From Octopus vulgaris (taxonomy: Eukaryota), in assembly GCA_951406725.2 (NCBI GenBank), contig OX597818.1, positions 117,490,001 through 117,554,000 of the forward strand: DNA of 64,000 bases. The letters are read 5' to 3'. The position numbers and the translations under genes were made by a program. This document shows positions 52,905 through 63,619 of the stretch, piece by piece (the stretch's first letter is position 1; each line of letters opens with the position of its first letter). Below the pieces are notes generated by a model that ran no database searches, had not been told where the DNA came from, and saw nothing but the letters and a program-made list of their open reading frames with translations.

Positions 52905-53155
52905 ATATGGGTACAGGACACCAAAAATTCGTCGAACACAATGAGAAACGAAAACAAACACAAATCCAAGGAAATGGACATTTTTCTTAAACAACGAAAA
53001 AAAATATGAAAAAAATAGAGTACAAGACATACAACACAAGGAAAATTCACCTTCCTCAGCCGCCTCTGCTTCAACTACTCCGCGTTTCGAAGGTAAAGGC
53101 GAGATACGACTTCGTTGAAACAGTCTTTCCCGCGAAAGCAGAATAAATCAAATTT
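52905..53155 (-). mobile_element. PLE-like terminal repeat carrying the permuted hammerhead
   Basis: Homologous to 62598-62830 (GTACAGGACA...AACGAAAA...AGAGTACAAGACA..CAA.ACAAGGAA); abuts an AT/AC microsatellite. Confidence 0.7.
53046..53123 (-). ncRNA. Non-circularly permuted hammerhead ribozyme candidate, copy 1
   Basis: Minus strand: CTGTTTCAAC-GAAGT-CGTAT-C-TCGCCT-TTA-CCTTC-GAA-ACGCG-GAGTA-GTTGAAGCAG-AGGCGG-CTGAGGA-AGGTGAA; stems covary with copy 2. Confidence 0.65.
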
Positions 53156-53259
53156 TCGATTTTTTATTTATTAATTATATATTTATTAATTTGTTATTAT
53201 ATGACGGAACGCACGCATCCATTTCTAAGTAAGTTTTATCTTAATATACATATACATAC

Positions 53260-54720: not shown

Positions 54721-54921
54721 CTCTTTTACTTGTTTTAGTCATTTGACAGTGGCCATGCTGGAGCACCGCCTTTAGTCGAGCAAATCGACCCCAGAACTTA
54801 TTCTTTGTAAGCCTAGTACTTATTCTATCGGTCTCTTTTGCCGAACCGCTAGGTTACGGGGACGTAAACATACCAGCATCGGTTGTCAAGCGATGTTGGG
54901 GAGACAAACACAAACATACAA

Positions 54922-54961
<40 letters not shown>

Positions 54962-55249
54962 ACATACATATACATATATACTACGGACTACTTTCAGTTT
55001 CCGTCTACCCAATCTAGTCACAAGGCTTTGGTCGACCCGAGGCTATAGTAAAAGACAGTTACCCAAGGTGCCACGCAGTTGGACTGAACCCGGAACCACG
55101 TGGCTGGTAAGCAAGCTTCTTGCCACACAGCCACTCCTGCATCTATTGGCTATAATAGAAGACAGTTGGCCAAAGTGCAACGCAGTGGGACTGAACCCGG
55201 AACCATGCGGTTGGTAAGCAAGATACTTACCACACACCCTCTCCTACGC
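54721..55249 (-). mobile_element. SINE family A with a tandem second head (about 55150-55249)
   Basis: Full copy 54721-55140, then a repeated GCTATA.TAGAAGACAGTT..CAA.GTGC.ACGCAGT.GGACTGAACCCGGAACCA segment. Confidence 0.92.
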
Positions 55250-62321: not shown

Positions 62322-62508
62322 CAATAATAAATCTCTGAACGAGATGTAAACAGTAACCGCTCGACAATGTAAAGTATAATAGCCATCTCAATATGGCTAA
62401 CCACAAACGGTGGGTGTCACTGTAGCTTTTAGCCCCAGGAGATCATCGTCTCCATCTGGCTTTAGGCACAATATCTGTGCCCTTATGGTATTTGCAAATA
62501 TAGATATA

Positions 62509-63383
62509 TAATTTAATAAATAAAATATATGCATACATACATACATATATGTACGTACCTACATCTACATGTATCTATACATGCATATATATATATATGA
62601 GTACAGGACAACACAAATAGACGTAGAACTCAACGAGAACGAAAACGTAAAAACAAACATGGAAACGGACTTTTTTTAACAACGAAAAAACAGAGTACAA
62701 GACAAACAATACAAGGAATATTCCCCTCCATCAGCTGTCCCTAGTTCGACTCCAAGCGTGTTTCGAAGGTAAGGACAGAACACGACCCGTCGAACCAGCC
62801 CTTCCTGCGAAAGAATTAAATAAAATTCCTTTGCAGAGGGGTAAAAGCAAGGAGAAAATGTGACAAGAACTGGACGTAAAAGCCATACGAATTAAAATAC
62901 AAAAAAAAAACAAATACAAAATAAAAATACAAATACAAAAAAATACAGTACAAATAAAGAATAAAATCGGGACAAAAAACCAACATCGAGGGCCTATTTT
63001 TAGCCTAGACGAGGAAAATTCAAGAGCTCAGGAAAAAAGCATGTTCACTTGTAGAAGGCCGCCGGCGAAAGTAAGTGGTCGACTCGGCTGTGAGAGAGAT
63101 GGGGAGGAGTGGGAGAGAGAGATAGAGAGGGAAGGAAACCAGAAGGGATGAAAAATAAGGAGAGAGACAGGCAAAGAGGAAGACAGACAGGAAGGAAGGG
63201 AAGGTCAAGCAAAAGGTTACAGAGTTTCGCGTCATAATTATATATAAAAACTTACTTGGAAAATAGAAAAGAAACGAAACGACGCGAGGGCGCTCAGTCA
63301 TGTAATAATTTAATAAATAAAATACATGCATACATACATATATGTACGTACCTATATCTACATGTATATATATATACCTGCAT
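62509..63383 (-). mobile_element. PLE-like element bounded by direct repeats of about 78 bp
   Basis: TAATTTAATAAATAAAATA.ATGCATACATAC..ATATATGTACGTACCTA.ATCTACATGTAT at 62509-62586 and 63306-63383; contains the permuted hammerhead. Confidence 0.6.
62721..62798 (-). ncRNA. Non-circularly permuted hammerhead ribozyme candidate, copy 2
   Basis: Minus strand: CTGGTTCGAC-GGGT-CGTGT-T-CTGTCC-TTA-CCTTC-GAA-ACACG-CTTGGA-GTCGAACTAG-GGACAG-CTGATGG-AGGGGAA. Confidence 0.65.
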
Positions 63384-63619
63384 GAATACAAAGTCTAGTT
63401 GTACTGAGAATGTTGGTGGGAAATATTGCTAGGTTTGTAGGTTTGTAACGAACAAGATCAATTTATGTACTCATCGCTGTGCATGACTGTGGAAGCATAC
63501 AGAATGATGAATAAATTACCCAGAAATCATTTTGTTTAAATTGCTGCAAACGAAAGAAATACAAACTGGTTCGATTCAATTCTCAATTTGTATTACCCTG
63601 CACACACACACACACACAC

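Follow-up and report, generated by a model that had tools for sequence, protein, structure and literature searches.

A probable decayed copy of a predicted hammerhead ribozyme with a four-way junction between A9 and G10.1 in a high-copy Penelope-like repeat of Octopus vulgaris

Introduction

The published scheme of hammerhead ribozymes comprises six permutations according to the accessible text of Eckert 2023 (PMC10085705); six are allowed because the CUGANGA block of the core is assumed to be indivisible. A candidate hammerhead on the minus strand of a 64,000-nt stretch of Octopus vulgaris DNA, hereafter the window, raises the question whether a hammerhead can also be opened inside that block. 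A first-pass annotation had placed the second of two permuted copies (copy 2) at 62721..62798 and implied a stem II partner just 3' of the core. The locus therefore poses three questions: which strand completes stem II, whether the RNA is likely to cleave itself, and what kind of element carries it. Comparison of the locus with other genomic copies and with published elements indicated that it is probably a decayed copy of a predicted self-cleaving hammerhead with a four-way junction between A9 and G10.1, situated close to the 3' terminus of a non-coding Penelope-like repeat, which is present in high copy number and likely represents a non-autonomous derivative of Naiads.

Elements of the candidate ribozyme in the window

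Inspection of the sequence revealed that the minus strand carries every element of copy 2. Stem III, U17, stem I, the outer helix, the CCTTC-GAAA segment and the core CTGATGG are all present (Table 1), and the permuted hammerhead was borne out in a non-circularly permuted form. The annotated span proved too short, the structure running from 62841 to 62723. Sequence and covariation give the strand order P0a, hairpin, stem II 5' strand, outer helix 5' strand, S, G, outer helix 3' strand, stem I 3' strand with CUGANGA, and P0b. A descriptor for this strand order found copy 2 as its sole exact match in the window, added copy 1 when one mismatch was allowed, and gave 0 matches in 150 dinucleotide shuffles of the window on both strands, while an Rfam scan of the window at the gathering score gave no match.

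All helices are intact in the window copy. Its outer helix consists of nine Watson-Crick pairs and one G-U pair, P0 has a stacking energy of -12.0 kcal/mol, and the inserted hairpin, which is present in the minimum free energy fold, abuts P0 and G10.1 directly with 0 unpaired bases on either side. Since AGGGG pairs with CCCCT and the hairpin lies between them, the direct connection of A9 to G10.1 is predicted to give way to a four-way junction. Stacking of stem II on the A9-G12 pair would be mediated by the unbroken strand C11.1-G12; the other two junction arms, P0 and the hairpin, would stack on each other and keep A9 and G10.1 together. Judged by its sequence, the layout is the SGC/CSG non-circular ring with a new opening, placed between A9 and G10.1.

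Table 1. Positions in the window of the candidate ribozyme, its repeat unit and copy 1
Feature	Position	Strand	Remarks
5' partial tandem of the unit's 3' end, including tail	63250..63388	-	pseudo-LTR-like arrangement
Candidate intron	63088..63255	-	spans pseudo-LTR/body boundary; GTAAGT donor, pyrimidine tract, CAG acceptor
Repeat unit body	62508..63249	-	carries the ribozyme; without the last ~65 nt of tail
P0 5' strand CCCCT	62837..62841	-	partner is the strand directly after core position 9; closes the domain
Inserted hairpin CTGC...GCAG	62805..62836	-	fourth arm of the predicted junction
Stem II 5' strand GAAGG	62800..62804	-	G10.1 = 62804; upstream of the remaining core
Outer (stem I-II interaction) helix, 5' strand	62789..62798	-	partner 62750-62741
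Block S	62773..62784	-	stem III 3' strand, U17 and stem I 5' strand
Stem III 3' strand CGTGT	62784-62780	-	pairs with ACACG 62761-62757
U17 (GUU triplet)	62779	-	predicted cut between 62779 and 62778
Stem I 5' strand CTGTCC	62778-62773	-	pairs with GGACAG 62740-62735
Block G	62757..62769	-	stem II 3' strand CCTTC, G12-A13-A14, stem III 5' strand ACACG
CCTTC; GAAA	62769-62765; 62764-62761	-	within block G
Outer helix, 3' strand	62741..62750	-	from the covariation alignment
Stem I 3' strand GGACAG and core CUGAUG(G)	62728..62740	-	core CTGATGG = 62734-62728
P0 3' strand AGGGG	62723..62727	-	directly after position 9
Palindrome GGAATATTCC	62715..62724	-	perfect form not conserved
Copy 1	53040..53140 (stretch 53040-53240)	-	other subfamily, 72% identical; 5'-truncated at an inversion junction

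In copy 1 the P0 5' strand is absent, as is one half of the inserted hairpin, and stems II and III contain mismatches; this copy is likely dead.

At the family level the core C3-U4-G5-A6-N7-G8-A9 is kept: A9 was found in 28/30 and 30/30 copies of the two subfamilies, and the remaining core positions in 28-30 of 30. Among the nearest copies, G12 is present in 28/30 and A13-A15.1 in 30/30, and residue 17 is not G. The window copy departs from this pattern at position 9 (62728), where it alone of the 30 nearest copies has G, 28 having A and one T. The first-pass annotation had called this A9G change probably inactivating, and a private, probably damaging change is what the comparison indicates. 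A9 and the general base, G12, form a sheared pair (PMC11300833), and core mutations are described as generally reducing hammerhead activity in the accessible text of PMC9901934 and PMC3088659. For A9U, Eckert 2023 (PMC10085705) cites a loss of at least 20-fold, yet also functional natural A9U cases; no activity figure for A9G was found in the literature on core mutations. From the A9G change, the window copy is likely slow or dead, and the change itself likely reflects decay of a single copy.

The annotation had further proposed that a palindrome downstream of the core, GGAATATTCC, could compete for the stem II strand as a possible conformational switch. This idea found little footing, as the perfect palindrome occurs in only 6/30 and 1/30 copies of the two subfamilies, and its weak hairpin (-1.8 kcal/mol) would rival the closing helix P0 rather than stem II. 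Pairing of P0a with the stem II 5' strand may be a better switch candidate. On the minus strand from 62841 to 62799 this pairing extends the hairpin and possibly forms an inactive co-transcriptional fold. Nested minimum free energy folds favour such alternatives, and z-scores of nested folds for six sequences ranged from -2.6 to +0.7, a kind of folding that cannot represent the pseudoknotted structure.

Repeat unit and copy number

The candidate ribozyme sits near the 3' end of a non-coding repeat unit of about 800 nt. The segment 63375-63239 matches the 3' end of other copies, which is the basis of the pseudo-LTR-like tandem listed in Table 1. The motifs of the candidate intron recur in other copies as well, and the intron recalls the 5' UTR intron of Penelope and Chlamys-3 (Craig 2021, PMC8557442, accessible text). 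Contigs from four presumed RNA sequencing runs cover the family, and no spliced junction was observed in them.

The genome searched consists of 227 contigs that total 2.8 Gb. First-look candidates numbered 3417 with copy 2 as query and 3619 with copy 1, and 40 were scored in each case. An exact two-part core pattern of the window family matched 1230 times and a pattern downstream of the core 2297 times, with 0 matches for the reversed control of either pattern. The descriptor scan also brought up a homologous sister of the window repeat, family D (loci L311-L400), with 2349 exact core matches and 0 in the reversed control.

Copies of the window family occur as partial head-to-tail tandems resembling pseudo-LTRs. 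Inverted 5' pieces are also seen, one end bears a tail, and the flanks are (TA)n, i.e. microsatellite targets. Such anatomy is given for Penelope-like elements, Naiads among them, in the accessible text of Craig 2021 (PMC8557442). No shared ORF was found upstream of the window-family copies examined.

A different abundant dispersed repeat of about 400 nt is also present in the window, at 54721-55155 and in about ten similar stretches which are 70-85% identical.

5' ends of insertions around the predicted cut

If the RNA cleaves itself in vivo, it would do so after residue 17 once P0b has been transcribed, and the 3' product, starting at stem I, would often serve as template for reverse transcription. 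Use of this product as template would explain many insertions that start 0-21 nt 3' of the site. The 5' junctions of the window family were mapped as the end of family similarity in the first 100 listed of the 2297 matches anchored 3' of the core. Thirty-four of the 100 lay at +21 to -1 of the predicted cut, an interval picked after seeing the data, as compared with 2 at -2 to -24 and 8 at +48 to +22. The corresponding rates were 2.0%, 0.15% and 0.31% per base, a ratio of 13 across the predicted cut. A free two-change-point fit gave +21 and -1, and a change point at +6 fitted nearly as well, 1.4 log units behind. Few junctions lie exactly at the site, most being 6-21 nt 3' of it; they cluster at A/T-rich steps, which would fit microhomology to (TA)n targets, and some of them are internal deletions or inversions.

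The first pass on family D, with the first 70 listed of 1375, did not replicate the pile-up (11 versus 7, p = 0.43), because simple-repeat (TA) flanks were aligned into the A/T-rich site. When simple repeats were masked and scoring was made stricter, a post hoc procedure applied to both families, the counts were 16 versus 0 (of 70) for family D and 33 versus 2 for the window family. The excess over the downstream zone remained weak in family D (p = 0.06), and the raised junction zone there covers much of the 3' half of the structure.

The junction pile-up may be read as an indirect sign of cleavage in vivo. Another explanation is that the fold is real and acts as a structural signal, for instance in binding or priming of the reverse transcriptase, with little or no cleavage, the pile-up being caused by the enzyme stalling in the knot. 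The position of most junctions 3' of the site rather than at it, the wide raised zone of family D and the lack of a tested precedent for a broken A9-G10.1 link in the accessible literature are what one would expect from such a signal. It accounts less readily for the roughly tenfold fall of the junction rate upstream of the predicted cut, for the low rate that the window family shows at the stronger outer helix and stem I strands, which the enzyme meets first, and for the retention across phyla of the catalytic nucleotides, the U16.1-A15.1 pair and a non-G residue 17 although the helices have diverged. We therefore regard a purely structural role as unlikely, and prefer the self-cleaving hammerhead.

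About 25 base pairs would still hold the two cleavage products of this hammerhead together, possibly permitting religation or read-through of the nick; in tandem units, release or circularisation of monomers may be imagined.

The strand that forms stem II

An ordinary type-SGC hammerhead, with the stem II strand taken from directly after CUGANGA and the upstream pairings as accessories, was the arrangement implied by the first-pass annotation. It has some appeal, since the order S-G-C, the 3-nt linker and the interaction helix all fit, and four of the five positions of the downstream strand can pair in the window family, two of them as G-U. Both partners were compared in three alignments.

The first alignment held 32 copies from the window and 90 loci, picked for reaching the upstream helix, which excluded truncated copies; the 3' half of one row is offset by a single column. 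Fourteen of 38 pairs were changed on both sides, and 93% of cells were paired as against 37-48% in slid controls. Two-sided changes were found in 4/6 pairs of stem I, 3/5 of stem III, 5/10 of the outer helix and 2/7 of the inserted hairpin. The upstream stem II, with the canonical G10.1-C11.1 pair, was paired in 98% of cells, P0 in 93%, and the U16.1-A15.1 pair was present in 31/32 rows. Neither stem II nor P0 had a compensatory change in the window family, both being nearly invariant, and for this reason the first alignment cannot by itself choose between the two folds. In addition, G8-A9-A-G-G also complements CCTTC in the window family, and the control slid by -2 was 91% paired.

Addition of the sister family changed the picture. 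The second alignment combined 12 rows of the window family with 4 of family D. In it, the upstream stem II was paired in 97.5% of cells with two-sided changes in 3/5 pairs, and P0 was changed on both sides in 3/6 pairs; the compensatory changes stem from one lineage split and are not independent events. The downstream alternative was 65% paired in the same rows, with 0 compensatory changes. Of 20 further family D loci inspected by eye, those reaching far enough have the upstream strand and P0, and the inserted hairpin of this family differs in sequence from that of the window family.

The third alignment held 23 rows of Naiad-type copies, picked from 34 loci. Here the upstream stem II was 91-92% paired and the downstream alternative 40%; P0 was weaker, with 81% of cells paired and one position mismatched in 15/23 rows. 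Compensatory changes in P0 were detected both in family D and in the Naiad-type copies. As the covariation overall stems from few lineage splits, the cells of these alignments are not independent events.

The stem II strands are GAAGG/CCTTC in the window family, GAGCA/TGCTC in family D, GGCTG/CAGCC in family C and GACACC/GGTGTC in the Naiad-type copies. Family C, for which 9 copies were listed and inspected by eye, thus has a third stem II sequence, again upstream. Four families have four stem II sequences, and in each family the upstream strand yields the canonical G10.1-C11.1 pair, which the downstream strand yields in 0/32, 0/23 and 0/16 rows. The stacking energy likewise favours the upstream partner (-8.7 versus -5.9 kcal/mol). 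With the upstream strand, stems I, II and III surround the core and covary. By the pairing predicted for them, families D and C and the Naiad-type copies decide the stem II question in favour of the upstream strand, and an ordinary type-SGC fold appears highly improbable.

That the ribozyme forms in trans between two units, dimeric or neighbouring in tandem, and so avoids intramolecular pseudoknots is hardly credible: tandem and inverted unit pairs are common, and Eckert 2023 (PMC10085705, accessible text) cites dimer-cleaving hammerheads in Penelope-like elements, yet one unit closes all helices with short linkers and full-length stems, and monomeric SGC and CSG RNAs cleaved in vitro according to the same text.

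Family C is a further high-copy family (L016:850-1010, L052, L093, L110, L245) with the same ribozyme layout. It has an AUC triplet, and U-U mismatches occur in P0 beside the junction.

Relation to Naiad elements

In the accessible part of Craig 2021 (PMC8557442), Naiads are described as having no canonical hammerheads, and eight of them, including Naiad_Ovul, are flagged 'HHR_half_core'. We asked whether the layout of the octopus repeat is also present at Naiad 3' ends, and read by eye the ends of 25 of the 54 published consensus sequences, a choice biased to the flagged ones; the last 400-600 nt were read for 24 and a shorter end for one more. Record names were matched to the header order up to Naiad-1_Dst, and the order of the cephalopod records was assumed from the table.

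The full layout, that is P0a, hairpin, upstream stem II, outer helix, S, G, CUGANGA and P0b, was recognised in six of the 25 ends, as far as these consensus records extend: Naiad_Bfor, Naiad-3_Chem, Naiad_Amil, Naiad-2_Movir, Naiad_Obim and Naiad_Ovul. These span a ctenophore, a hydrozoan, a coral, a box jellyfish and two octopuses, and their helix sequences are unrelated except between the two octopuses. Part of the layout was seen in Naiad_Esco. Type CSG was recognised in five nematode ends (Parc, 2_Nbra, 3_Nbra, Hpol and Asuum), that of Naiad_Asuum having one extra U between A9 and G10.1. In the remaining 13 ends neither form was seen by eye in the stretch read.

Bivalve and hemichordate Naiad ends (the records before Naiad_Sglo, Naiad_Pmar and Naiad-2_Pfla) carry another conserved, GC-rich motif, which has no hammerhead core and is possibly another ribozyme.

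Motifs taken from the published Naiad_Ovul consensus have exact matches in the octopus genome, where a 16-nt motif of the Naiad-type copies gave 449 exact matches. Locus L217 has, in this order, an N-terminal GIY-YIG fragment, reverse transcriptase motifs and the Naiad-type ribozyme, and in locus L219 an endonuclease piece is joined directly to the 3' end. The ORF of autonomous Naiads, with N-terminal GIY-YIG and C-terminal reverse transcriptase, was found only in this sister Naiad-type family, e.g. in L217. The window family shares the RNA layout of the Naiad_Ovul and Naiad_Obim ends, as far as these records extend. Unlike Naiad_Ovul-type loci, it has no ORF, and no BLAST similarity to the Naiad-type loci was detected; its link to Naiads consequently rests on RNA architecture and insertion pattern. 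From these two features the window repeat is likely a non-autonomous Naiad derivative, and its layout is likely the ribozyme that Naiads were thought to lack.

No autonomous partner of the window family was found among 30 GIY-YIG loci and 14 Naiad-endonuclease loci. The top GIY-YIG loci are mostly elements with a C-terminal endonuclease and a different 3' motif, window-family matches near GIY-YIG loci are opposite-strand insertions, and the 14 Naiad-type endonuclease loci led only to Naiad-type ends.

We propose with moderate confidence that animal Naiads carry working, non-circularly permuted hammerheads. Type CSG would be used in nematodes, and a seventh topology, in which a four-way junction bridges a core interrupted between A9 and G10.1, would extend from ctenophores and cnidarians to octopus, cut in vivo and set the 5' end of many reverse-transcribed RNAs.

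Comparison with known hammerheads and significance

The layout resembles type SGC, represented by HRIMA-1 and its variants in the accessible text of Eckert 2023 (PMC10085705), in the order S, G and then CUGANGA, in the 3-nt linker and in a helix that connects the far ends of stems I and II. It differs in that the block C of type SGC (stem I strand, CUGANGA and stem II strand) was assumed to be uninterrupted, whereas in octopus this block is interrupted, stem II receives its strand from upstream and the A9-G10.1 link is replaced by two additional helices. Type CSG, of which that text reports two natural sequences, both cleaved in vitro, has the same ring order, and the run of stem II strand, interaction strand, S and G is identical. 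Type CSG is opened between G and C, in contrast to the octopus form, which opens inside block C. Type SGC was found in metatranscriptomes and metagenomes (Eckert 2023, PMC10085705, same text), and the words 'octopus', 'metazoa' and 'Naiad' do not occur in the text of the supplement of that paper.

Two other groups were considered. In the PK hammerhead, as given in the accessible text of Zhan 2024 (PMC11300833), helix II is likewise supplied to the core through a pseudoknot; there, C3-A9 continues into G10.1 with pistol-like connectivity and the pseudoknot involves the helix IV loop, and the octopus element has neither feature. Non-LTR retrozymes (bioRxiv 10.64898/2026.07.22.740005) are, like the window family, non-coding hammerhead units derived from Penelope-like pseudo-LTRs that occur as monomers or tandems. 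Unlike it, according to the accessible text, they carry type I hammerheads and were sought with type I models only; tandem units do occur in the window family, but its hammerhead is not type I.

In our literature search, which was largely non-subscription, no paper on this layout or on permuted hammerheads in Naiads was found, nor any precedent at the A9-G10.1 step, and the type names SGC and CSG occurred in one paper only (PMC10085705). A core insertion in a natural hammerhead is known from a viroid. In the chrysanthemum viroid hammerhead, an additional A separates A9 from G10.1. The presence of an extra A within the core of this hammerhead is described in PMC3705267.

If the proposed structure is correct, the assumption of an indivisible block would break, and the catalytic core would tolerate strand exchange at A9-G10.1. 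Non-circular permutations, so far represented by a few hundred environmental sequences, would then be present in animal genomes in thousands of copies. Naiads, which rank with the most abundant Penelope-like elements, would no longer stand out as oddly devoid of hammerheads. The pattern of 5' junctions would offer a testable answer on the role of ribozymes in Penelope-like elements, and the open junction could serve as a handle for engineered switches.

Three pattern matches were obtained in viral contigs; none had the helices when inspected by eye, and they were taken as chance. A young Penelope-like family of the octopus genome (G000, e.g. L129 and L134) has a C-terminal GIY-YIG and many intact 781-aa frames, and its 3' end carries a minimal hammerhead-like motif in which TTGATAA replaces CTGATGA.
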